Shown here: positions 1,010 through 60,442 of the stretch, piece by piece | Numbering within the stretch: position 1 is the first letter of the stretch | Layout: every line of letters starts with the position of its first letter | NCBI RefSeq assembly: GCF_046105845.1 | Contig: NZ_CP151004.1 | Strand: one strand, 5' to 3' | DNA: 64,000 bases | Source: Escherichia coli | GTDB lineage: Bacteria > Pseudomonadota > Gammaproteobacteria > Enterobacterales > Enterobacteriaceae | Made by a program: the position numbers and the translations under genes | Notes under the pieces: model-generated | What the model saw: only the letters and a program-made list of their open reading frames with translations | Databases searched by the model: none | What the model was told of the DNA's origin: nothing

Positions 1010-1011
1010 AC

Positions 1012-1686: not shown

Positions 1687-2272
1687 AGTCATCATTGCCA
1701 GGGCCTGGAGCAGGGATCTTTACCAACTTCACCAGGGATTATGGCATTTATTTCCAAACAGACCGGATGCTGCTCGTGATTTTCTTTTTCATGTTGAGAA
1801 GCGAAACACACCAGAAGGCTGTCATGTTTTATTGCAGTCAGCGCAAATACCTGTTTCAACTGCCGTTGCGACAGTCATTAAAACTAAACAGGTTGAATTT
1901 CAACTTCAGGTTGGTGTTCCACTCTATTTTCGGCTTCGGGCAAATCCGATCAAAACTATTCTCGACAATCAAAAGCGCCTGGACAGTAAAGGGAATATTA
2001 AACGCTGTCGGGTTCCGTTAATAAAAGAAGCAGAACAAATCGCGTGGTTGCAACGTAAATTGGGCAATGCGGCGCGCGTTGAAGATGTGCATCCCATATC
2101 GGAACGGCCACAGTATTTTTCTGGTGATGGTAAAAGTGGAAAGATCCAAACGGTTTGCTTTGAAGGGGTGATCACCATCAACGACGCGCCAGTGTTAATA
2201 GATCTTGTACAGCAAGGTATTGGGCCAGCTAAATCGATGGGATGTGGCTTGCTATCTTTGGCTCCACTGTGA
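1673..2272 (+). CDS. casE: CRISPR repeat endoribonuclease CasE (Cas6e)
   Basis: 199-aa ORF MYLSKVIIARAWSRDLYQLHQGLWHLF..., recognised as Cas6e; position between casD and cas1. Confidence 0.92.
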   Translation: MYLSKVIIARAWSRDLYQLHQGLWHLFPNRPDAARDFLFHVEKRNTPEGCHVLLQSAQIPVSTAVATVIKTKQVEFQLQVGVPLYFRLRANPIKTILDNQKRLDSKGNIKRCRVPLIKEAEQIAWLQRKLGNAARVEDVHPISERPQYFSGDGKSGKIQTVCFEGVITINDAPVLIDLVQQGIGPAKSMGCGLLSLAPL

Positions 2273-2287
2273 TTGAGGTGTAATAAA

Positions 2288-3491
<1,204 letters not shown>

Positions 3492-3596: not shown

Positions 3597-5089
3597 GAGT
3601 TCCCCGCGCCAGCGGGGATAAACCGTCCGATCCGAAAAAACGGGTAGTCGCCTACGAGAGTTCCCCGCGCCAGCGGGGATAAACCGCCCAGTGGCGAAGG
3701 GCAACGTAAGCATAAAACGAGTTCCCCGCGCCAGCGGGGATAAACCGGGGTAACACCGTGGCAGCAAGTCGATCCGCTGGAGTTCCCCGCGCCAGCGGGG
3801 ATAAACCTGATGCGCGCCGACTTGAATCACTGCGCATGGCGAGTTCCCCGCGCCAGCGGGGATAAACCGATGGACCGTGCCGCTTTTCGCCACCTGACGC
3901 CGAGTTCCCCGCGCCAGCGGGGATAAACCGTGGCTCCGGTCGGGGCCCGCCGCTTGCGGTGGGAGTTCCCCGCGCCAGCGGGGATAAACCGGTGCGTGAA
4001 TTATCTATCCAGGCAAAAGTAACGAGTTCCCCGCGCCAGCGGGGATAAACCGCATATTTTTCAGGATATCTATAAATGGGCGGGGAGTTCCCCGCGCCAG
4101 CGGGGATAAACCGCTCATCAAAATAATCGGCATTGTCAGAAATCCGAGTTCCCCGCGCCAGCGGGGATAAACCGTGCACTGGCTGACTACGCCGCAGCAC
4201 ATAAATGAGTTCCCCGCGCCAGCGGGGATAAACCGATAATTGATGCGATCTGGTCCACTACAGTGGCGAGTTCCCCGCGCCAGCGGGGATAAACCGTAGT
4301 TGCTGTTTAGGCTGTGTTGTGGTTACCAGAGTTCCCCGCGCCAGCGGGGATAAACCGACCTGCTCGCGATGCGTCTGCCGCTGGAACCCGAGTTCCCCGC
4401 GCCAGCGGGGATAAACCGTTGCGCGATCCATCGCTCAGCTTTGATCATGAGAGTTCCCCGCGCCAGCGGGGATAAACCGCGCAGCGCCGACGAACTGGAC
4501 GGCGCTATAAAGAGTTCCCCGCGCCAGCGGGGATAAACCGATGTGGCAGAAATTGATGGAGCGGATGTGCGAGAGTTCCCCGCGCCAGCGGGGATAAACC
4601 GATTTAGATACGGCACACAGGAATGCGCTGGATGAGTTCCCCGCGCCAGCGGGGATAAACCGCGGCTGGCTGTAATAATGCACGGCAGTGTGACGAGTTC
4701 CCCGCGCCAGCGGGGATAAACCGTGAATAATAAGGCGCTGACGGGCGATATTACGGAGTTCCCCGCGCCAGCGGGGATAAACCGGAACAACCTGAACGGA
4801 TGCCACCTTTTCACCTGAGTTCCCCGCGCCAGCGGGGATAAACCAACCGTCAGCATAGACCCATCTAGTCAGATTCTGTGTTCCCCGCGCCAGCGGGGAT
4901 AAACCGGCCCATTCCCCCCATACCGGCGGCAAGTTTAAGTGTTCCCCGCGCCAGCGGGGATAAACCGATTCCGTCAAATTTATCACTCAACGCCAGTTCG
5001 TGTTCCCCGCGCCAGCGGGGATAAACCGGGCGCACTGGATGCGATGATGGATATCACTTAGAATTCCCCGCCCCTGCGGTAGAACTCGC
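3597..5089 (+). CRISPR. Type I-E CRISPR array: 24 full 29-bp repeats, one degenerate terminal repeat, 24 spacers of 32 bp
   Basis: Repeat GAGTTCCCCGCGCCAGCGGGGATAAACCG recurs with an exact 61-bp period from 3597 to 5000. The last three full repeats begin GTG instead of GAG, and repeats 4 and 21 differ in their last base. Degenerate repeat GAATTCCCCGCCCCTGCGGTAGAACTCG at 5061..5089. Confidence 0.97.
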
Positions 5090-12476: not shown

Positions 12477-13838
<1,362 letters not shown>

Positions 13839-13977
13839 AACGTGAGGAAATACCTGGATTTTTCCTGGTTATTTTGCCGCAGGTCAGCGTATCGTGAACA
13901 TCTTTTCCAGTGTTCAGTATGGTGCCTTGCACGGTAATTATGTCACTGGTTATTAACCAATTTTTCCTGGGGGATAA

Positions 13978-15117
13978 ATGAGCGCGGGAAGCCCAAAATT
14001 CACCGTTCGCCGCATTGCGGCTTTGTCACTGGTTTCGCTATGGCTGGCAGGCTGTTCTGACACTTCAAATCCACCGGCCCCGGTAAGCTCCGTTAATGGC
14101 AATGCGCCTGCAAATACCAATTCTGGTATGTTGATTACGCCGCCGCCGAAAATGGGGACGACGTCTACAGCTCAGCAACCGCAAATTCAGCCGGTACAGC
14201 AGCCACAAATTCAGGCAACTCAACAACCGCAAATCCAGCCGGTGCAGCCAGTAGCTCAGCAGCCGGTACAGATGGAAAACGGACGCATCGTCTACAACCG
14301 TCAGTATGGGAACATTCCGAAAGGCAGTTATAGCGGCAGTACCTATACCGTGAAAAAAGGCGACACACTTTTCTATATCGCCTGGATTACTGGCAACGAT
14401 TTCCGTGACCTTGCTCAGCGCAACAATATTCAGGCACCATACGCGCTGAACGTCGGTCAGACCTTACAGGTGGGTAATGCTTCCGGTACGCCAATCACTG
14501 GCGGAAATGCCATTACCCAGGCCGACGCAGCAGAGCAAGGAGTTGTGATCAAGCCTGCACAAAATTCCACCGTTGCTGTTGCGTCGCAACCGACAATTAC
14601 GTATTCTGAGTCTTCGGGTGAACAGAGTGCTAACAAAATGTTGCCGAACAACAAGCCAACTGCGACCACGGTCACAGCGCCTGTAACGGTACCAACAGCA
14701 AGCACAACCGAGCCGACTGTCAGCAGTACATCAACCAGTACGCCTATCTCCACCTGGCGTTGGCCGACTGAGGGCAAAGTGATCGAAACCTTTGGCGCTT
14801 CTGAGGGGGGCAACAAGGGGATTGATATCGCAGGCAGCAAAGGACAGGCAATTATCGCGACCGCAGATGGCCGCGTTGTTTATGCCGGTAACGCGCTGCG
14901 CGGCTACGGTAATCTGATTATCATCAAACATAATGATGATTACCTGAGTGCCTACGCCCATAACGACACAATGCTGGTCCGGGAACAACAAGAAGTGAAG
15001 GCGGGGCAAAAAATAGCAACCATGGGTAGCACCGGAACCAGTTCAACACGCTTGCATTTTGAAATTCGTTACAAGGGGAAATCCGTAAACCCGCTGCGTT
15101 ATTTGCCGCAGCGATAA
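13978..15117 (+). CDS. nlpD: Lipoprotein NlpD (LysM plus M23 peptidase-like domain)
   Basis: 379-aa ORF with lipobox (LAGCS), PQIQ repeats and a C-terminal M23-like region; the rpoS promoters lie inside this gene in E. coli. Confidence 0.92.
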
Positions 15118-15179
15118 ATCGGCGGAACCAGGCTTTTGCTTGAATGTTCCGTCAAGGGATCACGGGTAGGAGCCACCTT

Positions 15180-16172
15180 ATGAGTCAGAATACGCTGAAA
15201 GTTCATGATTTAAATGAAGATGCGGAATTTGATGAGAACGGAGTTGAGGTTTTTGACGAAAAGGCCTTAGTAGAAGAGGAACCCAGTGATAACGATTTGG
15301 CCGAAGAGGAACTGTTATCGCAGGGAGCCACACAGCGTGTGTTGGACGCGACTCAGCTTTACCTTGGTGAGATTGGTTATTCACCACTGTTAACGGCCGA
15401 AGAAGAAGTTTATTTTGCGCGTCGCGCACTGCGTGGAGATGTTGCCTCCCGCCGCCGGATGATCGAGAGTAACTTGCGTCTGGTGGTAAAAATTGCCCGC
15501 CGTTATGGCAATCGTGGTCTGGCGTTGCTGGACCTGATCGAAGAGGGCAACCTGGGGCTGATCCGCGCGGTAGAGAAGTTTGACCCGGAACGTGGTTTCC
15601 GCTTCTCAACATACGCAACCTGGTGGATTCGCCAGACGATCGAACGGGCGATTATGAACCAAACCCGTACTATTCGTTTGCCGATTCACATCGTAAAGGA
15701 GCTGAACGTTTACCTGCGAACCGCACGCGAGTTGTCCCATAAACTGGACCACGAACCAAGTGCGGAAGAGATCGCAGAGCAACTGGATAAGCCAGTTGAT
15801 GACGTCAGCCGTATGCTTCGTCTTAACGAGCGCATTACCTCGGTAGACACCCCGCTGGGTGGTGATTCCGAAAAAGCGTTGCTGGACATCCTGGCCGATG
15901 AAAAAGAGAACGGTCCGGAAGATACCACGCAAGATGACGATATGAAGCAGAGCATCGTCAAATGGCTGTTCGAGCTGAACGCCAAACAGCGTGAAGTACT
16001 GGCACGTCGATTCGGTTTGCTGGGGTACGAAGCGGCAACACTGGAAGATGTAGGTCGTGAAATTGGCCTCACCCGTGAACGTGTTCGCCAGATTCAGGTT
16101 GAAGGCCTGCGCCGTTTGCGCGAAATCCTGCAAACGCAGGGGCTGAATATCGAAGCGCTGTTCCGCGAGTAA
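15180..16172 (+). CDS. rpoS: RNA polymerase sigma factor RpoS (sigma-38), full length
   Basis: Internal ATG of track ORF 15144..16172 gives [34 protein letters not shown]... (330 aa); no premature stop, codon 33 reads E. Confidence 0.95.
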
Positions 16173-16189
16173 GTAAGCATCTGTCAGAA

Positions 16190-16224
16190 AGGCCAGTCTC
16201 AAGCGAGGCTGGCCTTTTTCTTTT
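16190..16224 (+). terminator. Rho-independent terminator of rpoS
   Basis: GC-rich hairpin AGGCCAGTCTCAAGCGAGGCTGGCCT followed by a T-run, about 18 nt after the rpoS stop. Confidence 0.6.
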
Positions 16225-16292
16225 GTTTGGGAAGTCGGTGTGTTTTGTCGCCTGGATAAGACTCGTCAGCGTCCTACCCGGCAATCAGCATC

Positions 16293-16637
16293 CTATTTGC
16301 TCATCATCTTGCGCACCAACTGCATAAACAGCTCCTTCTCTTCTGCACTCAAACGCCCCAAAAATTCCTCATCCACACTGTCACCAATCGGTATCGCCGC
16401 AGCAAGTACCTTTTCTCCTTCGGCAGTCAGCCAGACAAAGCGACGCCGCTTGTCAGCGGCGTCATGTTCACGTCTGACTAAGCCACGATTTTCCATTCTT
16501 GCCAACATTTCTGCCAGCGTTGCTTTGGTGCTGACTGCTGCTTCTATCAGTGCCACCTGTTCGATACCAGGCTTATCAGCAATGGCGCGCATCACCGCGT
16601 ACTGTGGTTTGGTCAGGTCAGGTAACTCGACCCCGGC
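16293..16637 (-). pseudogene. MarR/SlyA-family regulator, apparently 5'-truncated
   Basis: The 100-aa track ORF begins inside the winged-helix region (…LTKPQYAVMMRAIADKPGIEQVALIEAAVSTKATLAEMLARMENRGLVRRE…); the frame stays open upstream only to a stop at about 16638, with no room for the N-terminal helix. Confidence 0.55.
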
Positions 16638-16793
16638 TCAAGCCCGGCCGGGATCACCGACAAGCTGATTATCGACGCCACCACGCCTGTCGCCCCGGAC
16701 AACCGTGGTCACTACAGCCAGCCCGTGGTGGATTTGCCGGAAACCAAAGCCTGGGCTGAAAAACTGACCGCTATGCTGGCCGCACGTAAATAA
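16626..16793 (+). pseudogene. 3' fragment (about 55 codons) of a UbiD-family decarboxylase gene
   Basis: Frame without a start codon translates to …GITDKLIIDATTPVAPDNRGHYSQPVVDLPETKAWAEKLTAMLAARK*, which looks like a UbiD-family C-terminus; it is bounded upstream by a stop at about 16623 and abuts the truncated MarR gene. Confidence 0.5.
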
Positions 16794-16803
16794 GGAGAAC
16801 AAG

Positions 16804-17040
16804 ATGATTTGTCCACGTTGTGCCGATGAACAGATTGAAGTGATGGCGAAATCGCCGGTAAAAGATGTCTGGACGGTCTACCAGTGCCAGCATTGCCTCT
16901 ATACCTGGCGCGATACCGAACCGCTACGCCGCACCAGCCGCGAACATTATCCCGAAGCGTTCCGCATGACGCAGAAAGATATTGATGACGCGCCGATGGT
17001 GCCGAGCATCCCGCCGCTGCTGGCGGCAGATAAGCGTTAA
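16804..17040 (+). CDS. Small zinc-ribbon protein resembling the D subunit of hydroxyarylic acid decarboxylases (EcdD/BsdD-like)
   Basis: 78-aa ORF MICPRCADEQIEV…VYQCQHCLYTW with two CxxC pairs; AAGGAG ribosome-binding site 7 nt upstream; lies right after the UbiD-like fragment. Confidence 0.6.
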   Translation: MICPRCADEQIEVMAKSPVKDVWTVYQCQHCLYTWRDTEPLRRTSREHYPEAFRMTQKDIDDAPMVPSIPPLLAADKR

Positions 17041-17080
17041 TAAAAAGTGCCGGGTAGTGGCTTTGCTTTACCCGGCCTCA

Positions 17081-17737
17081 TTACTTTATTTTATAAAATG
17101 ACAGCCGCCCGCTTTTCGGCGATCCGGTATCAATATAAATCTGGTTAGCGAACGTCTGAATGTTATCAAACATCATATGTCCAAATATAAAATAATCAGC
17201 GCCGTTTATTTGTTGTAACTCGCCATTAAGCGATTTCTGCACACGATCAACAGGCCAGAGTAGTTCTCTCTCCGCTATTTCTTTGTCAAAGAGATATTCA
17301 TTCCCCGGATAATCTGCATGTGCGATGACATATTTTATTATGTCGTTAGTGATTTCAATAATATGTGGAAGGCGATGAAATTTCAGCAACAGATTTATTG
17401 CTTCTTGTTGTTCCGTCTCATTTAATTCAAAGAACCAGTCGCCGCCGCTGGCAAGCCACATATTTCCATCGCCAGTTTCGAATGCATCAAGCGCCATCGC
17501 TTCATGGTTGCCTTTAACCGACGTAAACCAGGGTTGGTTTAGCAGGTGCAGCACGTTAAGACTCTCCGGCCCACGATCAATATTATCGCCGACAGAAATA
17601 AGTAAGTCGGTTTCAGGGCAAAAAGAGAGTTGATGTAAGCGGGATTGTAATAATTGATAGTCACCATGAATATCACCAACGGCCCATATATGGCGATAGT
17701 GATGGGTATTGATTTTTTGATAGCGTGTAGATGGCAT
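17081..17737 (-). CDS. pphB: Serine/threonine protein phosphatase 2
   Basis: 218-aa ORF with metallophosphatase motifs (GDIHGD, GDNIDRG, GNHE); adjacent to mutS. Confidence 0.9.
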   Translation of the reverse strand: MPSTRYQKINTHHYRHIWAVGDIHGDYQLLQSRLHQLSFCPETDLLISVGDNIDRGPESLNVLHLLNQPWFTSVKGNHEAMALDAFETGDGNMWLASGGDWFFELNETEQQEAINLLLKFHRLPHIIEITNDIIKYVIAHADYPGNEYLFDKEIAERELLWPVDRVQKSLNGELQQINGADYFIFGHMMFDNIQTFANQIYIDTGSPKSGRLSFYKIK

Positions 17738-17842
17738 GGTTTTACCCTGTAAAATAAGCTTTCCTATTATACAGGGTATTTTTATTTGATTCGTCAGTTG
17801 TCGTTAATATTCCCGATAGCAAAAGACTATCGGGAATTGTTA

Positions 17843-20404
17843 TTACACCAGACTCTTCAACCGATAAATCCACTCCAGCGCCTGACGCGGAGTCAGTGAA
17901 TCCGGGTCGAGGTTTTCCAGTGCCTCGACCGCAGGCGAAGTTTCTTCTGGTACGGGCAGCAAAGACATTTGCGTACCATCCACTTGCGTAGCGGCGGCGT
18001 TCGGCGAAATGCTTTCCAGCTCACGCAGTTTTTGCCGTGCGCGCTTAATCACCTCTTTTGGCACGCCCGCCAGAGCAGCAACCGCCAGGCCGTAGCTTTT
18101 GCTCGCCGCGCCATCCTGCACGCTATGCATAAAGGCAATGGTGTCGCCGTGCTCCAGTGCATCGAGATGCACGTTGGCGACGCCTTCCATTTTCTCCGGT
18201 AACTGGGTCAGCTCGAAATAGTGGGTAGCAAACAGCGTCAATGCCTTAATCTTATTCGCCAGATTTTCTGCGCACGCCCACGCCAGCGACAGACCATCGT
18301 AAGTGGACGTTCCACGCCCGATCTCATCCATTAACACCAGACTGTATTCGGTGGCGTTATGTAAAATATTGGCGGTTTCAGTCATCTCCACCATAAAGGT
18401 TGAGCGCCCGGAAGCCAGGTCATCTGCCGCGCCTACGCGGGTAAAGATGCGATCGATAGGTCCAATCTCGACTTTTTGTGCCGGTACATAGCTGCCGATG
18501 TAGGCCATCAGCGCAATCAGTGCGGTCTGGCGCATATAGGTACTTTTACCGCCCATATTCGGACCGGTAATGATCAACATGCGACGCTGCGGCGACAGGT
18601 TCAGCGGGTTGGCGATAAATGGCTCGTTCAGTACCTGTTCAACCACCGGATGGCGGCCTTCGGTGATGCGAATACCCGGTTTATCAATGAAGGTCGGGCA
18701 GGTGTAGTTCAGCGTATAGGCCCGTTCCGCCAGGTTCACCAGCACGTCGAGTTCCGCCAGCGCGCTCGCGCTCTGTTGCAACGCTTCCAGATGCGGCAAC
18801 AGCAGGTCGAACAACTCTTCATAAAGCTGTTTTTCCAGTGCTAGTGCTTTGCCTTTTGAAGTGAGAACTTTGTCTTCGTACTCTTTTAGCTCTGGAATAA
18901 TGTAGCGCTCGGCGTTTTTCAGCGTCTGGCGACGCATGTAATTGATGGGTGCCAGATGGCTTTGTCCACGGCTGATCTGAATGTAATAACCATGAACCGC
19001 GTTAAAGCCGACTTTCAGCGTGTCCAGGCCAGTACGTTCACGCTCGCGGACTTCCAGACGCTCCAGATAATCGGTCGCGCCGTCAGCCAGCGCGCGCCAC
19101 TCATCCAGCTCTTCGTTATAGCCCGATGCGATAACACCACCGTCGCGTACCAGCACTGGCGGTGTGTCGATGATTGCTCGCTCCAGCAGATCGCGCAGCT
19201 CGGCAAACTCGCCCATCTTCTCACGTAGCGCCTGTACCGGAGCGCTATCGACAGTTTCTAACTGCGCACGCAGCTCCGGCAGTTGCTGGAAAGCGTGACG
19301 CATACGGGCCAGATCGCGTGGGCGAGCAGTTCGTAAAGCCAGACGCGCCAGAATACGTTCCAGGTCGCCGACCTGACGCAGTACCGGCTGCAGCTCGGCG
19401 GTGAAATCCTGCAATGCGCCAATAGTTTGCTGGCGCTCAAGCAACACGCGGGTATCGCGCACTGGCATATGCAGCCAGCGTTTCAGCATACGACTACCCA
19501 TCGGCGTTACAGTGCAGTCGAGCACTGAAGCCAGCGTGTTTTCCGCACCGCCCGCCAGGTTCTGAGTAATTTCCAGGTTACGACGTGTCGCGGCATCCAT
19601 AATGATGCTGTCCTGCTCACGTTCCATGGTGATAGAACGAATATGTGGCAGGGTCGTACGTTGGGTATCTTTCGCATACTGCAACAGACAACCGGCAGCA
19701 CAAAGTCCGCGCGGCGCGTTCTCGACGCCAAAACCGACCAGATCGCGGGTGCCAAATTGCAGATTCAACTGCTGGCGCGCGGTGTCGATTTCAAACTCCC
19801 ACAGCGGGCGACGGCGCAGGCCGCGACGGCCTTCAATTAACGACATTTCAGCAAAATCTTCTGCATACAGCAGTTCCGCAGGATTAGTGCGTTGCAGTTC
19901 TGCCGCCATCGTTTCCCGGTCAGCCGGTTCGCTCAGGCGAAAACGACCGGAACTGATATCCAGCGTCGCGTAGCCGAAACCTTTGCTGTCCTGCCAGATA
20001 GCCGCCAGCAGGTTGTCCTGACGCTCCTGCAACAGGGCTTCATCGCTGATGGTGCCTGGCGTAACGATACGCACAACTTTGCGCTCAACCGGACCTTTGC
20101 TGGTCGCCGGATCGCCAATTTGTTCGCAGATGGCAACGGACTCGCCCTGATTCACCAGTTTGGCGAGGTAGTTTTCCACCGCATGGTAGGGAATCCCCGC
20201 CATCGGGATCGGCTCTCCCGCCGAAGCACCGCGTTTGGTCAGTGAAATATCCAGCAGTTGCGATGCGCGTTTTGCGTCGTCATAAAACAGTTCATAAAAA
20301 TCACCCATCCGGTAAAACAGCAGGATCTCGGGATGCTGGGCTTTCAGCTTGAGATACTGCTGCATCATGGGCGTATGGGCGTCGAAATTTTCTATTGCAC
20401 TCAT
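17843..20404 (-). CDS. mutS: DNA mismatch repair protein MutS
   Basis: 853-aa [43 protein letters not shown]… with Walker [10 protein letters not shown]. Confidence 0.97.
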
Positions 20405-20650
20405 GGGGTTATGTCCGGTTCCCTGATATTAAATGGGGTGTGATGGTTTTTATTTTCGTTGTAATCACATAAGGCGCACATGATACCGGAGTTAATCATT
20501 TCAGGGGAAGAAGCGAACGGCGAGTTCTTGATGCTGGTTCCGGGAAAGATGCTGTTTTGCAGCTTTTGCGTGATGCTTATGAAGCAAGTACGCAAAATTG
20601 TATCGGTTGGCTAACCCTTCTTCTTTAGAGTCATAGTGCCTTTTAAGATT

Positions 20651-20673
20651 AAGTTGTAATATAAATGCATCTT
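20651..20673. promoter_or_regulatory. Candidate NsrR operator upstream of ygbA
   Basis: AAGTTGTAATATAAATGCATCTT lies about 18-40 nt upstream of the ygbA ATG; the right half matches the AAATGCATCTT half-site I recall for NsrR, and ygbA is a known NsrR regulon member. Left half is degenerate. Confidence 0.4.
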
Positions 20674-20690
20674 AATGAGGTGGAGGCAGC

Positions 20691-21035
20691 ATGTCCGGCA
20701 AGCGTATCTCTCGTGAAAAACTGACGATTAAAAAAATGATCGATCTTTATCAAGCGAAATGCCCGCAGGCGTCAGCGGAGCCGGAGCATTACGAGGCGTT
20801 GTTTGTTTACGCGCAAAAGCGGCTGGATAAATGTGTGTTCGGCGAAGAGAAACCAGCCTGTAAGCAGTGTCCGGTGCACTGTTACCAGCCTGCAAAGCGT
20901 GAAGAGATGAAACAGATTATGCGTTGGGCCGGGCCGAGAATGCTGTGGCGTCATCCGATCTTAACCGTGCGTCATCTCATCGATGACAAGCGTCCGGTGC
21001 CGGAGTTGCCAGAAAAATATCGTCCAAAGAAATAA
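20691..21035 (+). CDS. ygbA: Nitric oxide-responsive protein YgbA
   Basis: 114-aa ORF MSGKRISREKLTIKKMIDLYQAKCPQASAEPEHYE…; divergent from mutS. Confidence 0.85.
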   Translation: MSGKRISREKLTIKKMIDLYQAKCPQASAEPEHYEALFVYAQKRLDKCVFGEEKPACKQCPVHCYQPAKREEMKQIMRWAGPRMLWRHPILTVRHLIDDKRPVPELPEKYRPKK

Positions 21036-21073
21036 ATCTGCCGGAGAGCCATACTCTCCGGCAAATAAGGCGT

Positions 21074-21502
21074 TTACGCTTTGGTGGCAATCAGGATGGC
21101 TGATGCTTTGATCAATGCAATAACGCGTGAGCCAGTGGTGAGTTTCATTTCATCCTGACTTTCATTTGTTACCACTGCCACAATTTCAAAACCCGCATCC
21201 GTTTTGATATGGACAGTGGCGTTCACTGCGCCTTCGGTGATTGTCGACACGCTGCCAGCAAACTGGTTGCGAGCAGAGAATTTCAGTCCACAGTCTTCCG
21301 TTGCCAGCGTTACCCACGGGGCTTTAATCAGGGCAATCGCTTCTTTCCCTTTCGCCAGACCCAGAGCCTGCTGGCTGCTGTGAGTCACAATTGCCACCAG
21401 CTTTGCACCACCTGCCAGCGTCAGTTCTACTTCGTCATTCACCGCGCCCATTGCTACTGCGCTAACTGTTCCGGTTAATTGATTTCTTGCTGAAACTGCC
21501 AT
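21074..21502 (-). CDS. Tandem TOBE (Mop-like) molybdate/tungstate-binding protein
   Basis: 142 aa from the ATG that has a strong GAAAGGAGG ribosome-binding site; two ~68-aa repeats each starting with the SARNQ(L/F)xG(T/S)V Mop signature; starts 44 nt after the fhlA stop on the same strand. Confidence 0.75.
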   Translation of the reverse strand: MAVSARNQLTGTVSAVAMGAVNDEVELTLAGGAKLVAIVTHSSQQALGLAKGKEAIALIKAPWVTLATEDCGLKFSARNQFAGSVSTITEGAVNATVHIKTDAGFEIVAVVTNESQDEMKLTTGSRVIALIKASAILIATKA

Positions 21503-21546
21503 ACTGCCTCCTTTCATTGAATGTTGATCGAGTATAACCACATCTG

Positions 21547-23625
21547 TTAAATCAATGCCGATTTATCAATTCCCAGTCGCTTCATCCGTGACAGCAGAGT
21601 CGTGCGTTTCAGCCCCAGACGTTGCGCAGCGCCTTTAGGCCCGGCAACCACGCCGTTGGTTTCTTTCAGCACGCGAACAATCAACTGATATTCATCTTCG
21701 CCCTCCTGGGCGACAACCGTTGCGGCAGGCGGCGTTTCTGGTTCCGGTAAAACAATATCTGGCAGTGACAGCTGCAGCACGTTGCCGCGTGTTAGCAATA
21801 CCGCGCGCTCAATGACGTTTTCCAGTTCGCGTACGTTACCCGGCCACTCCATGTTGCTCAGGATGCGCAGCGTCTCGGCAGGAATGCTGTCGATATTGCG
21901 CCCCAGACGACGGGCAATTTTGAAGGTAAAGGCTTTCGCCAGCAGCGGAATATCTTCCGGACGCTCGCGTAGTGGCGGCAGGTGAATCGGGAATACGTTC
22001 AGGCGGTAATAGAGATCGCTACGGAACTCACGGTCGGCGACCATTTTTTTCAGATCGCGGTTAGTTGCGGCGATTAGACGCACGTCCGTCTGAATGATTT
22101 TGTTGCTGCCGAGACGTTCAAACTCCTGTTCCTGTAATACACGCAGCAACTTCGGCTGTAACTCCAGTGGCATATCGCCCACTTCGTCGAGGAACAGGGA
22201 GCTTTTATCCGCCAGTTCAAAACGACCGATACGCTGGGCGCTGGCACCGGTAAAAGCCCCACGCTCATGACCAAACAGATCGCTCTCTAGCAATCCGGCA
22301 GGCATCGCCGCGCAGTTCATTTTTACCATGCGGCGATTATTACGCCCACTGAGATTATGGATCGCGCGGGCAATCAGCTCTTTACCCGTGCCAGTTTCAC
22401 CGAGGATCAGCACGGTACTGTCGCTTTGCGCCACCATTTCAACTTGTTTAAGTACGCTGTACATGGCTTCGCTGCGGCCAATAATCTCGCCAAATTCACT
22501 ATCAACATTGTTGAGCTGCTCGGTCAGGGCGAGGTTTTCATCAACCAGCCGTTCTTTCAGACGATGGATTTCCTGATAGGCGAGGGCGTTATCGACAGCG
22601 ATTGCCACACGTTCGGCAATCTGGCGCAGTAAATTCAGATTGGTAGTGGTAAACACTTTCTCTTCGCATTGCGCCAGTTTCAGCACGCCCAGCATGGTGT
22701 CGCCAGACATCAGCGGTAACAGGCACAAGGTTTGAATCTGGTTGCCCCAGGTGTCGAACAACATGCGTTCATAGGGGGCTAAATCGTCCCGCTCGTGGAG
22801 ATTAATCAGCAGCATCTCTTTGCTTTTGAACACGCGTTCGGTGAGGGTTCCGGCTTCATCGACTTCGCTCTGTTCGTGGGCGGGATGCTGTTTATCAAGA
22901 TAGTGAGTGGAGTAGATGTTGAGTTTGTTTTTACGGTGGCTGCGTAAGACGATGCTGATATCGTCAATGTCGAAGTAGTAATGGATTTCTTTGGCGACTT
23001 CGCTGACCAGTTCGTCCATATCCAGGCGGGAAAGCACCGCGTTGGTAATGGCAACCAGGATGCGGAAGTTATCGCGCTCCCGGCATAACAACTCATAGTC
23101 GACATTATTGACGACGCGGCTCTGGATTTGTTCGGTGACGACAGAAACGATCTGCGTAAATGTTTGCAGACGATTGAACTCTTTTTCGCTCCAGGGGCGA
23201 TCGTCATAACGAATAAATTCACAGCCACCAAAAATATGCCCTTCCGCCGCCAGTGGCATCAGGCAATAGTGACCAAATTTGGGGTATAGCCCACCTGCGG
23301 CCAGCTGCGGCCAGGTTTCACAAAATTCTTCGTAACTGCAATGCAGCGTATCAGGGCGCGACAAAATGCTGCGTACCGGACCGTGTGCCAGAACAGTTTC
23401 GTCTTCATATTTAATGGGGGTGTCTTTTTCACGCGATGCGTAATAAGACGCACGTTGAGTCTGCGCTTGCCACAACACAATAGCCGCGTTGTCGGCGAGC
23501 GCAGAACGCTTTACCAGTTGCGAAAGAGCCTCACACAGCGAGGCCAGATCGGGCTGCTGCAATAGTGTCCGAGTGATGTCGAACAACCCTTGTTGTCCGA
23601 GATCACTCATCGGTGTATATGACAT
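21547..23625 (-). CDS. fhlA: Formate hydrogenlyase transcriptional activator FhlA (sigma54 enhancer-binding protein)
   Basis: Internal ATG of track ORF gives MSYTPMSDLGQQGLFDITRTLLQQPDLASL… (692 aa); AAA+ sigma54-interaction domain ([14 protein letters not shown]). Confidence 0.95.
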   Translation of the reverse strand: MSYTPMSDLGQQGLFDITRTLLQQPDLASLCEALSQLVKRSALADNAAIVLWQAQTQRASYYASREKDTPIKYEDETVLAHGPVRSILSRPDTLHCSYEEFCETWPQLAAGGLYPKFGHYCLMPLAAEGHIFGGCEFIRYDDRPWSEKEFNRLQTFTQIVSVVTEQIQSRVVNNVDYELLCRERDNFRILVAITNAVLSRLDMDELVSEVAKEIHYYFDIDDISIVLRSHRKNKLNIYSTHYLDKQHPAHEQSEVDEAGTLTERVFKSKEMLLINLHERDDLAPYERMLFDTWGNQIQTLCLLPLMSGDTMLGVLKLAQCEEKVFTTTNLNLLRQIAERVAIAVDNALAYQEIHRLKERLVDENLALTEQLNNVDSEFGEIIGRSEAMYSVLKQVEMVAQSDSTVLILGETGTGKELIARAIHNLSGRNNRRMVKMNCAAMPAGLLESDLFGHERGAFTGASAQRIGRFELADKSSLFLDEVGDMPLELQPKLLRVLQEQEFERLGSNKIIQTDVRLIAATNRDLKKMVADREFRSDLYYRLNVFPIHLPPLRERPEDIPLLAKAFTFKIARRLGRNIDSIPAETLRILSNMEWPGNVRELENVIERAVLLTRGNVLQLSLPDIVLPEPETPPAATVVAQEGEDEYQLIVRVLKETNGVVAGPKGAAQRLGLKRTTLLSRMKRLGIDKSALI

Positions 23626-23698
23626 TTTGTTCTTCCAGGAAAGCACCGCAAAGCGGTGCAAAAGGTCATTGACTAACTATAGGAGATTTAGAATTTTA

Positions 23699-24709
23699 TT
23701 AGCATATACGCGGAAGCGGTTCGGCGTGCGGTAGATCGAGGGTTCGTTTCACGCCATACAGACCGGCAAGACGAACACCTTTACGTTCCACCACTTCACC
23801 AATCAGCGCCGCGTCTTTTCCCAGTGGATGGGAATGTAACGCTGCCAGCACTTGCTCTGCCGCGTTGCGTTCAACGGCGATCACCAGTTTGCCTTCGTTG
23901 GCAAAGTTAAGGGCGTCCAGTCCCAGCAGTTCGCAAACGCCGCGCACAGCAGGTTTAACCGGCAGTGCCGCTTCTGAAAGTTCAATACCGCAACCGCAGG
24001 CTGCCGCGAACTCATGAACTACCGCGTTCACACCACCACGGGTGGCATCACGCAGCGCTTTCACGCCGGGAATGTCACGCAGCGTCTGAATAAGCGGCGT
24101 TAGTACCGCGCAGTCGCTGACCAGTTCGCCGTCCAGCCCCAGTTGCTCACGCAGGTTAAGGATAGTCGCCCCGTGGTCCCCGAGTGTACCGCTAACCAGC
24201 AATACATCGCCTGCGGTTAGCGTCTGTGCGCCCCAGTGAATATTCGCCGGAATTGCGCCCATGCCAGCGGTGTTGATAAACAGTTTATCTGCCGCGCCGC
24301 GCTGCACCACTTTAGTATCGCCAGTGACGATGGCAATGCCTGCCGCGCGGGCGGTTTCTGCCATGCTGGTCACTACGGCTTTCAGTGTCTCCATCGGCAA
24401 TCCTTCTTCGAGGATAAAGCCACAGGAGAGATAGCGCGGAATAGCGCCACTGACCGCAACGTCATTCGCGGTGCCGCAAATCGCCAGCTTGCCGATATTA
24501 CCGCCAGGAAAGAACAGCGGGTCAATGACGTAACTGTCGGTGGAGAACGCCAGACGGTCGCCTTCCGCTACCAGCTGCGCCAGATCAAGACGTGCCTGAT
24601 CTTCCTGCTCTGCCAGCCACGGGTTGGCAAAGGCTTCCATAAACAGGCTGTTGATTAATTGCTGCATCGCCTGGCCGCCGCTACCGTGGGCGAGTTGGAT
24701 ATTATTCAC
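23699..24709 (-). CDS. hypE: Hydrogenase maturation protein HypE
   Basis: 336-aa ORF MNNIQLAHGSGGQAMQQLINSLF…, recognised as HypE. Confidence 0.93.
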   Translation of the reverse strand: MNNIQLAHGSGGQAMQQLINSLFMEAFANPWLAEQEDQARLDLAQLVAEGDRLAFSTDSYVIDPLFFPGGNIGKLAICGTANDVAVSGAIPRYLSCGFILEEGLPMETLKAVVTSMAETARAAGIAIVTGDTKVVQRGAADKLFINTAGMGAIPANIHWGAQTLTAGDVLLVSGTLGDHGATILNLREQLGLDGELVSDCAVLTPLIQTLRDIPGVKALRDATRGGVNAVVHEFAAACGCGIELSEAALPVKPAVRGVCELLGLDALNFANEGKLVIAVERNAAEQVLAALHSHPLGKDAALIGEVVERKGVRLAGLYGVKRTLDLPHAEPLPRIC

Positions 24710-25827
24710 GCTTCACTCTCCTGCTGACGATACTGATACCACGCGGCGCACGCTCCTTCGGAGGAAACCATCAGCGCACCAAACGCGGTTTGAGGATTAC
24801 AGGTGTTACCAAACAGCGGGCATTGATGCGGCTTACATTTGCCCGTTAATACTTCGCCACAACGTGCGCGCGGGTCATCGCAGACCTGCTGCGGTGCCGG
24901 GCGGAAATGCGCTTCGGCATCGAATCGTTGATAATCCGGCGTCAGGTGTACACCAGAAGATTCAATCACGCCTAAGCCGCGCCATTCGCTGTCGCCGTTG
25001 ACACAGAACACATCGGCAATCGCCTGTTGCGCCAGCAGGTTACCGGCATCCGGCACCACCCGACGATACTGATTCTCTACCTTGCTGTGGGCCGCTATTT
25101 TCTGCTCCACCAGCATGACCACGCCTTGCAGTAGATCAAGCGGTTCGAAACCAGCGACCACCAGCGGACGATGAAAATCGCTGGCGATAAAATTATAGGC
25201 ATCAGTGCCGATAACCATACTAACGTGACCGGGCGCAAGAAACGCGTCGATACCGTTATCCGGCTCTTCCAGCAAACTGCGCAGCGTCGGGATAAGCGTA
25301 ATATGCTGGCAGAAGAAGTAAAAATTCTGCACATCACGCGCTTTCGCCTGTTGCAGAGTGATGGCCGTCGTCGGCATGGTGGTTTCAAAACCTAAGCCGA
25401 AGAACACCACTTTGCGGGTTGGATTCTCCTGCGCCAGTTTCAACGCATCCATCGGCGAGTAAACGATGCGCACATCGGCACCGCGTGCTTTTGCCTGCAA
25501 CAGCGATCCCTGTTTCCCCGGCACGCGCATGGCGTCGCCAAAGGTACAGAAGATGACTTCCGGATGGCTGGCAATCTCCACGCAGGTGTCGATTCTACCC
25601 ATCGGCAGTACACACACCGGGCAACCGGGACCGTGGATAAACTCAACGTTTTCCGGCAGCAACTGGTCGAGGCCGAATTTAAAAATGGCGTGGGTATGAC
25701 CACCGCACACTTCCATAATCCGCAGAGGGCGTTCGGCGGTGTAAGAGAGATGTGAAGCACGTTCGCGCAGATGCTCAATTAACTGCATCACCTGTTCCGG
25801 CGCGCGATATTCATCAACAAAACGCAT
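24706..25827 (-). CDS. hypD: Hydrogenase maturation protein HypD
   Basis: 373-aa [23 protein letters not shown]…, recognised as HypD. Confidence 0.93.
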   Translation of the reverse strand: MRFVDEYRAPEQVMQLIEHLRERASHLSYTAERPLRIMEVCGGHTHAIFKFGLDQLLPENVEFIHGPGCPVCVLPMGRIDTCVEIASHPEVIFCTFGDAMRVPGKQGSLLQAKARGADVRIVYSPMDALKLAQENPTRKVVFFGLGFETTMPTTAITLQQAKARDVQNFYFFCQHITLIPTLRSLLEEPDNGIDAFLAPGHVSMVIGTDAYNFIASDFHRPLVVAGFEPLDLLQGVVMLVEQKIAAHSKVENQYRRVVPDAGNLLAQQAIADVFCVNGDSEWRGLGVIESSGVHLTPDYQRFDAEAHFRPAPQQVCDDPRARCGEVLTGKCKPHQCPLFGNTCNPQTAFGALMVSSEGACAAWYQYRQQESEA

Positions 25828-26099
25828 TATTTTTCCTCGCCATACAACAGCGCACCGACATCCGGCTCAACGTCAAACATGTTTTGTAAGGCGTCGAGAG
25901 TGTCGCGCGCTTCGGCTTCATTAATTACGCTCATGGCAAAGCCAACGTGAACCAGTACCCACTGGCCCACGCGCGGCTGACCGTTTTCATCGCAGCTGCC
26001 GACTAACGTTAAATCGACATCGCGCTGAATGCCGCAGACGTCGACTTTCGCCTGGTTGCCGTCAATGGTGCGGATCTGGCCGGGAACGCCTATGCACAT
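25827..26099 (-). CDS. hypC: Hydrogenase maturation chaperone HypC
   Basis: Internal ATG of track ORF gives [30 protein letters not shown]… (90 aa), the conserved MC(I/L)G(V/I)P N-terminus. Confidence 0.9.
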
Positions 26100-26962
26100 C
26101 GCTGTGTCTCCAGCCAGTTCAGCCACTGGTCCATCCCTTCGCCGCTGGTGGCGGAAATAAGGATGATTTCAATTTCTGGATTGACTTCGCGGGCGCAGGC
26201 GATGCACTTCTCAACGTCAAAGTTGAGATACGGCAACAGGTCAACTTTGTTGAGCAGCATCAGCGAGGCGGCGGCAAACATATGCGGATATTTCAGCGGT
26301 TTGTCTTCACCTTCGGTAACGGAAAGCACCGCCACTTTGTGTTTTTCACCGAGATCGAAGCTGGCCGGGCATACAAGGTTGCCAACGTTTTCGATAAACA
26401 GAATACCGTTATCGTCCAGTGGCAGACGCGGTGCGGCGTCGGCAATCATCTGTGCGTCAAGATGGCAGCCTTTACCGGTGTTCACCTGAATCGCTGGTGT
26501 GCCGGTAGCGCGAATGCGTGCGGCATCGTTCACGGTTTGCTGGTCGCCTTCAATAACCGCGCACGGAACGCTGTCTTTCAGGCGCATTAAGGTTTCCGTC
26601 AGCAGGGTGGTTTTACCGGAACCAGGGCTGGAAACCAGGTTGAGCACCAGTTGCTTGCGGGCAGCAAAGCGCGCGCGGTTGCGTTCAGCCAGACGGTTAT
26701 TTTTGTCCAGCACGTCAATTTCGACTTCCAGCATCCGACGCTGGCTCATGCCCGGCGCGTGAGTGCCCGCTTCGCCATGACCGTAATGCAGGTCGCCTTC
26801 TTCAGTCTGGCTGGGGGTAAATTCAGGCGCTTTAATGCCGGTGATTTTCATCTTCGGGCGTGCCGCCGGGGCAAATGGCGCGCTACGAAACGCGGAATGA
26901 GGGTTATGTTCATCACCCTCAATATAGAGGTTGCCTTCACCGCAACCGCATGTTGTACACAT
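26090..26962 (-). CDS. hypB: Hydrogenase nickel-insertion GTPase HypB
   Basis: 290-aa [13 protein letters not shown]… with His-rich stretch and GTPase motifs (GSGKTTLL). Confidence 0.93.
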
Positions 26963-26965
26963 CGC

Positions 26966-27316
26966 TCACTCCTGGTCTATTTCTATCCGCCGAATCTGTA
27001 AACCGTCGTCTGCCACAATCTGTAGCATGTCACCATGACACTGTGGACAGCGGCGGACGCGCTGGGTCAGTAGCGTCACATACTGTTGGCATGTTTCACA
27101 CCAGCATTCGGCCTCTTGTTCTTCGAGGTGCAGTTTACAACCTTCCGCCACGCTGCCGCGGCAAACCAGATCAAAACAAAAGGCAAGAGAGCTGGTTTCG
27201 ACACAAGAAAATGCGCCAATTTTGAGCCAGACCCCAGTTACGCGTTTTGCGCCGTGTTTTGCGGCCTGCTGTTCGATCAATTCCAGTGCCCGTTGGCAGA
27301 GGGTTATTTCGTGCAT
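26966..27316 (-). CDS. hypA: Hydrogenase nickel-insertion protein HypA
   Basis: Internal ATG of track ORF gives MHEITLCQRALELIEQQA… (116 aa) with zinc-binding CxxC…CxxC. Confidence 0.92.
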   Translation of the reverse strand: MHEITLCQRALELIEQQAAKHGAKRVTGVWLKIGAFSCVETSSLAFCFDLVCRGSVAEGCKLHLEEQEAECWCETCQQYVTLLTQRVRRCPQCHGDMLQIVADDGLQIRRIEIDQE

Positions 27317-27347
27317 ATCGCCTCCCATTAACTATTGCCAGCTACAA

Positions 27348-27362
27348 GCAATAATTGTGCCA
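27348..27362 (-). promoter_or_regulatory. Candidate sigma54 promoter of the hyp operon
   Basis: Minus strand reads TGGCACAATTATTGC, with GG and GC at the -24/-12 spacing; about 32 nt upstream of the hypA start. Coordinates approximate. Confidence 0.45.
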
Positions 27363-27475
27363 GTGTTGATTATCCCTGCAGTGAATAATGTCGATGATGT
27401 CGAAATGACACGTCGACACGGCGACGAAATTCATCTTTAGCTTAAAAATCGCTTTAATAACAATGAATTAAAAGT

Positions 27476-27491
27476 TGGCACAGAAAATGCT
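27476..27491 (+). promoter_or_regulatory. Candidate sigma54 promoter of the hyc operon
   Basis: TGGCACAGAAAATGCT with GG/GC at the -24/-12 spacing; about 37 nt upstream of the hycA ATG. The FhlA-activated hyc operon is known to be sigma54-dependent. Confidence 0.55.
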
Positions 27492-27527
27492 TAAAGCTGG
27501 CATCTCTGTTAAACGGGTAACCTGACA

Positions 27528-27989
27528 ATGACTATTTGGGAAATAAGCGAGAAAGCCGATTACATCGCACAGCGGCATCGTCGCCTACAGGACCAGTGGC
27601 ACATCTACTGCAATTCGCTGGTTCAGGGGATCACGTTATCGAAAGCGCGCCTGCATCACGCCATGAGCTGCGCGCCGGACAAAGAACTCTGTTTCGTCCT
27701 TTTTGAACATTTTCGTATTTACGTCACCCTGGCGGATGGCTTTAACAGCCACACCATCGAGTATTACGTCGAAACAAAAGATGGTGAAGACAAACAGCGG
27801 ATTGCGCAGGCGCAACTGAGCATTGACGGCATGATTGATGGCAAGGTCAACATCCGCGATCGCGAACAGGTTCTGGAACACTATCTCGAAAAAATCGCTG
27901 GCGTTTACGACAGCTTATACACCGCCATTGAAAACAATGTGCCGGTGAATTTAAGCCAACTGGTAAAGGGACAAAGCCCGGCAGCATGA
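27528..27989 (+). CDS. hycA: Formate hydrogenlyase regulatory protein HycA
   Basis: 153-aa ORF MTIWEISEKADYIAQRHRRLQDQWHIY…, recognised as HycA. Confidence 0.92.
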   Translation: MTIWEISEKADYIAQRHRRLQDQWHIYCNSLVQGITLSKARLHHAMSCAPDKELCFVLFEHFRIYVTLADGFNSHTIEYYVETKDGEDKQRIAQAQLSIDGMIDGKVNIRDREQVLEHYLEKIAGVYDSLYTAIENNVPVNLSQLVKGQSPAA

Positions 27990-28049
27990 GCTGAGGCTTT
28001 GCCCGTTTTGCAGGCGTTACGCCTGTTTGGGGATGGGCGTGTCGATGAG

Positions 28050-28094
28050 TGTCGAAAATGACATTTTATCGGCATGTTTTCGTCAAAAATGACA
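28050..28094. promoter_or_regulatory. Two copies of a TCGAAAATGACA-like motif in the hycA-hycB spacer (candidate FhlA upstream activating sequence)
   Basis: TGTCGAAAATGACA (about 28050..28063) and CGTCAAAAATGACA (about 28081..28094); a related GTCGAAATGACACGTCGAC motif sits in the hyp-hyc intergenic region near 27390..27410. Confidence 0.35.
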
Positions 28095-28113
28095 ATCACC
28101 TGAGGAATGCCTG

Positions 28114-28725
28114 GTGAATCGTTTTGTAATTGCTGACTCCACGCTCTGTATCGGCTGCCACACCTGTGAGGCCGCCTGTTCAGAGACGCATCGCCAGCAC
28201 GGCCTGCAATCAATGCCGCGCCTGCGAGTGATGCTCAATGAAAAAGAATCTGCGCCGCAGCTCTGTCACCACTGTGAAGATGCGCCCTGTGCGGTGGTTT
28301 GCCCGGTTAACGCCATCACCCGCGTTGATGGGGCCGTGCAGTTAAATGAAAGTCTGTGCGTAAGCTGCAAACTGTGCGGCATCGCCTGCCCGTTTGGCGC
28401 AATTGAATTTTCCGGCAGCCGTCCGCTGGATATTCCGGCAAATGCCAATACCCCGAAAGCGCCACCGGCACCGCCTGCTCCGGCGCGTGTCAGCACATTG
28501 CTTGACTGGGTGCCAGGTATTCGCGCGATCGCCGTCAAATGTGACCTTTGTAGTTTTGATGAACAAGGTCCGGCCTGCGTGCGGATGTGCCCGACTAAAG
28601 CCCTGCATCTGGTGGATAACACCGATATCGCCCGCGTCAGCAAACGTAAGCGTGAGCTGACTTTTAACACGGACTTTGGCGATCTCACCTTGTTTCAGCA
28701 GGCTCAAAGTGGAGAGGCTAAATGA
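28114..28725 (+). CDS. hycB: Formate hydrogenlyase 4Fe-4S ferredoxin subunit HycB
   Basis: 203-aa ORF with four CxxCxxCxxxCP clusters; GTG start per ORF track. Confidence 0.92.
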   Translation: MNRFVIADSTLCIGCHTCEAACSETHRQHGLQSMPRLRVMLNEKESAPQLCHHCEDAPCAVVCPVNAITRVDGAVQLNESLCVSCKLCGIACPFGAIEFSGSRPLDIPANANTPKAPPAPPAPARVSTLLDWVPGIRAIAVKCDLCSFDEQGPACVRMCPTKALHLVDNTDIARVSKRKRELTFNTDFGDLTLFQQAQSGEAK

Positions 28726-30548
28726 GCGCAATTTCCCTGATCAATAGCGGCGTGGCGTGGTTTGTCGCCGCCGCTGTTCTGGCATTTCTCTTTTCTTTTC
28801 AAAAGGCGCTAAGCGGCTGGATAGCCGGAATTGGCGGCGCGGTTGGTAGCCTGTATACGGCAGCCGCGGGCTTTACTGTGCTGACTGGCGCGGTTGGCGT
28901 GAGCGGTGCGCTGTCGCTGGTAAACTACGATGTGCAAATCTCTCCGCTTAACGCGATTTGGCTGATTACGCTCGGTCTGTGCGGTCTGTTTGTCAGCCTC
29001 TACAACATTGACTGGCATCGCCACGCGCAGGTGAAGTGCAACGGCTTGCAGATCAATATGTTGATGGCTGCCGCCGTCTGCGCCGTCATCGCCAGCAACC
29101 TCGGCATGTTCGTGGTAATGGCTGAAATCATGGCCCTGTGCGCGGTGTTCCTTACCAGCAACAGCAAAGAGGGCAAACTGTGGTTTGCGCTGGGGCGTCT
29201 TGGCACTCTGCTGCTGGCGATTGCCTGCTGGCTGCTGTGGCAGCGTTACGGCACGCTGGATCTGCGCCTGCTGGATATGCGTATGCAACAGCTGCCGCTC
29301 GGTTCCGATATCTGGCTGCTCGGTGTGATTGGCTTTGGCCTGCTGGCCGGGATTATTCCGCTGCACGGCTGGGTGCCGCAGGCACATGCGAACGCCTCTG
29401 CGCCAGCTGCCGCGTTGTTTTCTACGGTAGTCATGAAAATTGGCCTGCTGGGCATTTTAACCCTGTCGCTGCTGGGCGGTAATGCACCGCTGTGGTGGGG
29501 GATCGCGCTGCTGGTGCTCGGCATGATCACCGCGTTCGTCGGCGGTCTGTATGCGCTGATGGAGCACAACATCCAGCGCCTGCTGGCTTACCACACCCTG
29601 GAAAATATCGGCATCATCCTGCTGGGGCTGGGCGCTGGCGTAACGGGTATCGCGCTCGAACAACCGGCGCTGATTGCTCTTGGCCTGGTTGGTGGTCTGT
29701 ATCATCTGCTTAACCATAGCCTGTTCAAAAGCGTACTGTTCCTCGGGGCGGGGAGCGTCTGGTTCCGTACCGGTCATCGCGATATCGAAAAACTCGGTGG
29801 TATAGGCAAGAAAATGCCGGTTATCTCCATCGCCATGTTGGTCGGGCTGATGGCAATGGCTGCGCTGCCGCCGCTGAACGGTTTTGCCGGGGAATGGGTT
29901 ATCTATCAATCCTTCTTCAAATTGAGCAATAGTGGCGCGTTTGTTGCCCGTCTGCTGGGGCCACTGCTTGCTGTGGGTCTGGCAATTACCGGTGCGCTGG
30001 CGGTGATGTGTATGGCGAAAGTCTATGGCGTCACGTTCCTCGGTGCGCCGCGTACCAAAGAAGCCGAAAACGCCACCTGTGCGCCGCTCCTGATGAGCGT
30101 AAGCGTAGTGGCACTGGCGATTTGCTGCGTAATTGGCGGTGTTGCTGCGCCGTGGCTGCTGCCGATGCTCTCTGCTGCTGTACCTCTGCCGCTGGAGCCT
30201 GCTAACACCACCGTTTCTCAACCCATGATCACGTTGCTGCTGATTGCCTGCCCGCTGCTGCCATTCATCATTATGGCGATTTGCAAAGGCGACCGTTTGC
30301 CGTCGCGTTCCCGCGGCGCGGCCTGGGTGTGCGGCTACGACCACGAAAAATCAATGGTGATTACCGCTCACGGTTTTGCCATGCCGGTGAAACAGGCGTT
30401 TGCGCCAGTGCTGAAACTGCGCAAATGGCTGAATCCGGTGTCGCTGGTGCCGGGCTGGCAGTGCGAAGGCAGTGCGTTGCTGTTCCGCCGGATGGCGCTG
30501 GTTGAACTGGCGGTGCTGGTGGTGATTATTGTTTCACGAGGAGCCTGA
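28722..30548 (+). CDS. hycC: Formate hydrogenlyase membrane subunit HycC
   Basis: 608-aa polytopic membrane ORF, NuoL/ND5-like; position in the hyc operon. Confidence 0.92.
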   Translation: MSAISLINSGVAWFVAAAVLAFLFSFQKALSGWIAGIGGAVGSLYTAAAGFTVLTGAVGVSGALSLVNYDVQISPLNAIWLITLGLCGLFVSLYNIDWHRHAQVKCNGLQINMLMAAAVCAVIASNLGMFVVMAEIMALCAVFLTSNSKEGKLWFALGRLGTLLLAIACWLLWQRYGTLDLRLLDMRMQQLPLGSDIWLLGVIGFGLLAGIIPLHGWVPQAHANASAPAAALFSTVVMKIGLLGILTLSLLGGNAPLWWGIALLVLGMITAFVGGLYALMEHNIQRLLAYHTLENIGIILLGLGAGVTGIALEQPALIALGLVGGLYHLLNHSLFKSVLFLGAGSVWFRTGHRDIEKLGGIGKKMPVISIAMLVGLMAMAALPPLNGFAGEWVIYQSFFKLSNSGAFVARLLGPLLAVGLAITGALAVMCMAKVYGVTFLGAPRTKEAENATCAPLLMSVSVVALAICCVIGGVAAPWLLPMLSAAVPLPLEPANTTVSQPMITLLLIACPLLPFIIMAICKGDRLPSRSRGAAWVCGYDHEKSMVITAHGFAMPVKQAFAPVLKLRKWLNPVSLVPGWQCEGSALLFRRMALVELAVLVVIIVSRGA

Positions 30549-35475: not shown

Positions 35476-35556
35476 GTGATCAACTACTATAGAAAAATAA
35501 ATCCGAAGGAATGGTAGTCCAGGTTTAGTCATTCAGGCGCTAATAAGGAAGTTAAA

Positions 35557-60071: not shown

Positions 60072-60164
60072 GGTGAGGTGGCCGAGAGGCTGAAGGCGCT
60101 CCCCTGCTAAGGGAGTATGCGGTCAAAAGCTGCATCCGGGGTTCGAATCCCCGCCTCACCGCCA
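60072..60164 (+). tRNA. serV: tRNA-Ser (anticodon GCU)
   Basis: 93-nt sequence GGTGAGGTGGCCGAGAGGCTGAAGGCGCTCCCCTGCTAAGGGAG…CGCCTCACCGCCA with long variable arm, GCT anticodon and encoded CCA. Confidence 0.95.
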
Positions 60165-60167
60165 TTT

Positions 60168-60378: not shown

Positions 60379-60442
60379 TCTCTTACTTGATACGGCTTTA
60401 GTAGCGGTATCAAAAAATCTGCAGTAAAGTAAGTTTCCCGAT

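Follow-up and report, generated by a model that had tools for sequence, protein, structure and literature searches.

An intact rpoS gene encoding the consensus, non-K-12 form of sigma-S in a 64-kb stretch of an Escherichia coli chromosome

We analyzed a stretch of 64,000 nucleotides from the chromosome of an Escherichia coli strain (the window) and found that its rpoS gene, which encodes sigma-38 (sigma-S), is intact. This is almost certainly an ordinary chromosomal E. coli rpoS that encodes the consensus, non-K-12 sigma-S. Its cis elements are like those of K-12, and we expect standard expression and regulation. The allele has glutamate at codon 33, and an intact E33 allele is the default in the species and indicates non-K-12 ancestry. 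An intact consensus rpoS is the expected state of E. coli, which was already known, and it raises no new question. The features of the window that we discuss are listed in Table 1.

Table 1. Features of the window, with coordinates, strand, and remarks.
Feature	Coordinates	Strand	Remarks
Type I-E cas genes, partial	59-3491 (about)		The window begins inside the cas operon
Type I-E CRISPR array	3597-5089		24 complete 29-nt repeats with 61-nt spacing, plus a degenerate terminal repeat; 24 spacers
nlpD	13978..15117	+	379 amino acids; directly upstream of rpoS; hosts the main rpoS promoter; from ORF and annotated comparators
rpoS mRNA leader (long)	14613..15179	+	From the promoter inside nlpD; start placed at -567, as in the literature
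Shine-Dalgarno sequence, TAGGAG	15167..15172	+	7 nt before the ATG; identical to K-12
rpoS coding sequence (sigma-38 / sigma-S)	15180..16172	+	330 codons plus TAA; from ORF, translation, and profile and nucleotide matches
Codon 33 of rpoS, GAG (Glu)	15276..15278	+	Species-majority state; CAG (Gln) in MG1655, TAG (amber) in many K-12 stocks
rpoS-mutS spacer, short type	16173-17842		1.67 kb
Intrinsic terminator of rpoS	16186..16229	+	15-bp stem with 7 G-C pairs, then a T-rich tail; from terminator scan
MarR-family gene, 5'-truncated	16293-16628 (about)	-	PGAP pseudogene in VCSW5
Decarboxylase subunit D	16804-17040		Intact, 78 amino acids; followed by pphB
pphB-mutS-small ORF-ygbA block	17081-21000 (about)
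Five tRNA genes	60072-60796	+	Rfam
MicA small RNA	63710-63781	-	Rfam

The reading frame that begins with the ATG at 15180 is translated without internal stops as far as the TAA at 16170-16172. The mechanical open reading frame is longer, at 342 amino acids, as it begins with an in-frame ATG at 15144, which is 12 codons further upstream. We rejected this longer form because the rpoS genes of the comparators all start at the equivalent of 15180, which is the annotated start in each of the four genomes (strains 7/2, VCSW5, MG1655, and BL21(DE3)). The longer form is also ruled out by the Shine-Dalgarno sequence, which precedes the ATG at 15180, and by the RpoS model, which aligns from residue 1 of the 330-residue form. 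The in-frame stretch from the upstream ATG (15144-15179) is present in K-12 as well, and gene callers could over-extend rpoS there. Three minus-strand open reading frames within rpoS (146, 198, and 120 amino acids) were dismissed as artifacts that mirror the strongly conserved coding sequence.

The predicted protein matches both of the NCBIfam equivalog models for RpoS. NF004207 matches with 604.6 bits (E = 5e-182; the cutoff is 394 bits), and residues 1-329 of the protein align to positions 1-329 of this 329-position model. TIGR02394 matches with 480.7 bits (the cutoff is 378.7 bits). In the NCBIfam search, the models for RpoD, RpoH, and other sigma factors all scored below their own cutoffs. 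Pfam identifies Sigma70_r1_2 at residues 56-88, Sigma70_r2 at 94-163, Sigma70_r3 at 174-248, and Sigma70_r4 at 262-315; each is above its gathering score and covers nearly all of the profile. In other words, regions 1.2, 2, 3, and 4 are all present, as in the group 2 members of the sigma-70 family. Neither end of the protein is truncated: all 330 residues align end to end with RpoS chains from PDB.

At the nucleotide level, the gene is identical (993/993 nucleotides) to rpoS from strain 7/2 and from many other isolates, whose sources include humans, dogs, and swine. Given the full-length match to NF004207 and the identity to annotated rpoS over 993 nucleotides, this is not a chance open reading frame. 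The protein is RefSeq WP_000081550.1, which is annotated in strains 7/2, VCSW5, and BL21(DE3); we confirmed this by translating those loci. WP_000081550.1 is the commonest RpoS sequence in E. coli. This exact protein is encoded on at least 1,000 contigs, whose sources name it RpoS. The first-pass annotation had reported the gene as rpoS with these same coordinates, a length of 330 amino acids, no internal stop, and glutamate at codon 33. The translation, the match to NF004207, and the nucleotide identity bear out the first three of these and the identification as rpoS, and codon 33 is indeed GAG.

The gene is also in the expected place. It lies directly 3' of nlpD, with pcm, surE, and truD further upstream and a variable spacer toward mutS downstream. 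The order in the window is partial cas genes, CRISPR array, iap, cysDNC, ygbE, ftsB, ispDF, truD, surE, pcm, nlpD, rpoS, short spacer, pphB, and mutS, and the neighborhood of rpoS is co-linear with the annotated genomes of 7/2, VCSW5, MG1655, and BL21(DE3). Across 5,426 complete E. coli genomes, rpoS is present in 5,414, and at least 80% of it is found in one piece in 5,400.

The main promoter of rpoS, which we take to lie within nlpD, presumably starts transcription about 567 nucleotides upstream of the ATG, or near 14613 in the window. Reading the sequence, we see a TATTCT hexamer just upstream of 14613. A scan of 13800-16400 for sigma-70 consensus promoters gave no site; the known rpoS promoter is not close to the consensus. 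The promoter area (14467-14759) does not differ from K-12. The leader has only four substitutions relative to K-12 (at 14760, 14886, 14997, and 15018), all of which are synonymous in nlpD, and the last 161 nucleotides before the ATG (15019-15179) are identical. NlpD itself has no amino acid differences from its K-12 counterpart, with 14 synonymous substitutions in the gene. At the other end of the gene, the alignment to K-12 stops at 16218, just past the stem of the strong intrinsic terminator.

The leader of rpoS contains an auto-inhibitory hairpin that is relieved by the small RNAs DsrA, RprA, and ArcZ, together with Hfq. In the minimum free energy fold of 15030-15200, which spans the last ~125 nucleotides of the leader, a strand at about 15056-15080 pairs with the region of the Shine-Dalgarno sequence and the start codon. 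The z-score of this fold is -1.76, which is not statistically distinctive, so our argument about the leader rests on its identity to K-12 and not on the fold. When the entire window was searched with Rfam at gathering thresholds, nothing matched in or near rpoS.

Overall, the long leader (with its inhibitory hairpin and small-RNA target region), the Shine-Dalgarno sequence, and the terminator of an E. coli rpoS locus are all present (the functions of these elements are taken from the literature). Because these cis elements are present and are essentially identical to those of K-12, we expect rpoS to follow the standard pattern of expression and regulation. In that pattern, the leader hairpin keeps the ribosome-binding site closed, and small RNAs that depend on Hfq open it. 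Sigma-S is the alternative sigma factor that guides RNA polymerase to the promoters of the general stress response and of stationary phase.

We examined the distribution of codon 33 across the 5,426 complete genomes by using megablast with 31-mers, each of which has the first base of the codon at its center. An exact word of 28 bases is required by megablast, so a mismatch at the center of a 31-mer abolishes the match. The GAG (Glu) 31-mer was found in 4,833 genomes (89%), from across the species. The CAG (Gln) 31-mer was found in 174 genomes; in an even sample of 40 of these matches, all 40 look like K-12-type laboratory strains (MG1655, DH10B, MC4100, MC1061, Keio, and others). The TAG (amber) 31-mer was found in 121 genomes. 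The TAG matches listed are mostly K-12 derivatives (W3110, J53, HMS174, NCM3722, and S17-1), and they include the commercial laboratory strain BLR(DE3). The other ~300 genomes have other changes inside the 31-mer or lack rpoS. As a census of rpoS alleles, this covers codon 33 and large deletions. Codon 33 begins with G in the window (at 15276) and with C or T in alleles of the K-12 lineage.

Dong et al. 2009 (PMC2700278) reported that K-12 stocks differ at codon 33, with amber, Gln, Tyr, or Glu. They also found that natural isolates other than K-12 commonly have GAG, as did all of the verotoxigenic (VTEC) strains that were tested. Our census agrees with these results. Together, the amber alleles in our census and those in PMC2700278 uphold the earlier statement that laboratory K-12 lines often carry lesions in rpoS. 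The first-pass annotation had also proposed a comparison with the alleles of related strains, and the outcome is that the protein is the consensus one and that codon 33 is in the majority state.

Does an intact rpoS indicate that the strain is a natural isolate? The first-pass annotation had taken it as mild evidence of a natural or unadapted isolate. We give somewhat better than even chances to the idea that the intact E33 allele is the sign of a natural strain and not of a laboratory one. In K-12 laboratory lines, codon 33 is CAG or TAG, and the part of PMC7527412 that cites Bleibtreu et al. 2014 states that storage or domestication can select for mutations that attenuate rpoS. But BL21(DE3), which is a laboratory workhorse, encodes the identical protein; GAG is the state of codon 33 in roughly nine tenths of the complete genomes; and 174 of the 295 K-12-type genomes that we counted (59%) are intact at this codon, with CAG instead of TAG. 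We estimate that the likelihood ratio of rpoS intactness, for natural versus laboratory strains, is below about 2. Intact copies are all but universal in the sequenced genomes; the loss of rpoS is informative, and its retention is not.

Apart from rpoS, the 22 kb that surrounds it is at most 98.8% identical to any complete E. coli genome, and these genomes include K-12 and BL21(DE3). The source is therefore not K-12 or BL21(DE3), and the other sequenced laboratory strains of that collection are improbable sources as well. In other words, the strain is probably not from a standard laboratory lineage, because its best match over 22 kb is just 98.8% identical and not because its rpoS is intact. 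This part of the earlier claim was probably right, but the intact allele is very weak evidence for it. An intact consensus rpoS is a useful annotation for experiments on stress, stationary phase, or biofilms, and it argues against K-12 ancestry. To infer a natural isolate from it would be a mistake, given that the same allele is found in BL21(DE3) and in most of the complete genomes.

The level and activity of RpoS also depend on rssB, hfq, crl, dsrA, rprA, and arcZ and on the ppGpp and ClpXP systems, whose genes are outside the window; the gene map shows no trans-acting regulators of RpoS within the 64 kb. We predict that the strain is phenotypically RpoS-positive, because its allele is identical to that of catalase-positive VTEC strains with GAG at codon 33 (PMC2700278). 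(The VTEC strains in that study that had GAG-33 and only synonymous differences were catalase-positive.) The level and activity of RpoS are highly variable among environmental isolates (reviewed in PMC7527412), and the strain could have an intact rpoS and yet be deficient or low in RpoS due to changes elsewhere, such as increased proteolysis via RssB or defects in hfq, the small RNAs, or ppGpp. We found no positive evidence for a deficiency of this kind, and the cis elements all match those of functional reference strains, so we consider it unlikely.

Another way in which RpoS activity could be reduced is if the window's rpoS is a cryptic missense allele, which is full length but attenuated. 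Attenuating missense alleles of rpoS are known, and variants at residue 128 are the subject of PMC5405132. The window's RpoS, though, has no private substitutions, as it equals WP_000081550.1, and its only difference from K-12 is at residue 33, where natural isolates have Glu. A cryptic missense allele is extremely improbable, and the identity to the consensus allele effectively refutes it. We prefer the view that this is an ordinary and probably functional rpoS.

The first-pass annotation had also suggested that the status of rpoS matters for interpreting CRISPR regulation in this strain. The cas genes and the CRISPR array are about 10 kb upstream of rpoS and are its neighbors on the chromosome. 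The established regulators of the type I-E system in E. coli are H-NS, LeuO, CRP, and StpA. To our knowledge, sigma-S is not among the established regulators of this system. A full-text literature search for a link between RpoS and the control of type I-E cas genes in E. coli returned none among its top results, so the suggestion is unsupported. As to the array itself, the last few repeats begin with GTG, not GAG.

Downstream of rpoS, two deletions in the window set its spacer apart from that of strain 7/2; one is about 2.07 kb long and the other about 6.08 kb. Lost in the first deletion are decarboxylase subunit B, most of subunit C (whose tail is still in the spacer), and the 5' part of the MarR-family gene. 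The junction of this deletion, at 16624-16629, lies on a 6-bp microhomology (AACTCG). The second deletion removed ygbN through ygbI.

Beyond the spacer, none of the 5,426 complete genomes matches the pphB-mutS-ygbA block at more than 97.6% identity, and the adjacent nlpD-rpoS has best identities of 99.8-100% in complete genomes. Relative to four comparators, the divergence is 2.8-3.8% in the block and 0.6-1.3% in the 8 kb before it. This exact MutS protein was read on just 23 contigs, and the GTDB species-representative genomes have no exact match to a window-specific 37-mer taken from the mutS block. At only 17 sites of the block is the window different from all four of the comparators, so the block looks like a new combination of E. 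coli polymorphisms instead of an import from another species. Two Logan assemblies are 100% identical to parts of the window: SRR28309099 across 7843-30404 (22.6 kb) and ERR6411526 across 17824-30404 (12.6 kb). Both probably come from the clone that is the source of the window.

These observations may indicate a rarely sequenced lineage in which the invariant nlpD-rpoS adjoins a pphB-mutS-ygbA block that is at least 2.4% diverged, as a fresh recombinational mosaic with its breakpoint just past the rpoS terminator; we are evenly divided as to whether this is correct. A mosaic would fit with the hot spot of recombination that is known at mutS-rpoS and was reportedly described by Denamur et al. 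(2000), by Herbelin et al. (2000), and by Brown et al. (2001).

Elsewhere in the window, between hycI and ascB, a pair of genes encodes a HigB-family toxin and an HTH antitoxin (at about 35550-36284), as annotated in VCSW5; this region includes an open reading frame of 139 amino acids at 35865-36284. Unlike the window, BL21(DE3) has no toxin or antitoxin genes between hycI and ascB, so the pair is a small accessory insertion. Rfam matches nothing in the window apart from the five tRNA genes and MicA, and these fit with a K-12-like order (alaS-csrA-tRNAs-...-gshA-micA).

Finally, we compared the gene with named alleles of rpoS. The consensus allele, WP_000081550.1, as found in 7/2, VCSW5, and BL21(DE3), is the same as the window at 330 of 330 residues and is in the same place after nlpD. 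The rpoS genes of VCSW5 and BL21(DE3) differ from the window by one and nine synonymous nucleotides, respectively, and their proteins are identical. RpoS from K-12 MG1655 (b2741, NP_417221.1) is the same at 329 of 330 residues, with glutamine instead of glutamate at position 33. Similarly, Q33E is the sole mismatch to the K-12 RpoS in solved holoenzymes (PDB 6kj6, 5ipl, and 6omf). At the nucleotide level, MG1655 differs from the window by nine substitutions, namely Q33E and eight synonymous changes, and it has the same length, start, stop, Shine-Dalgarno sequence, proximal leader (161 nucleotides), and terminator. MG1655 does differ downstream of rpoS, where K-12 has ygbN through ygbI and the window has the MarR remnant, subunit D, and pphB. 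The K-12 amber allele (TAG at codon 33, as in W3110, J53, and HMS174) involves the same polymorphic codon, but the window has a sense codon, GAG. Judging from its sequence, the window's rpoS is not this null or attenuated allele.
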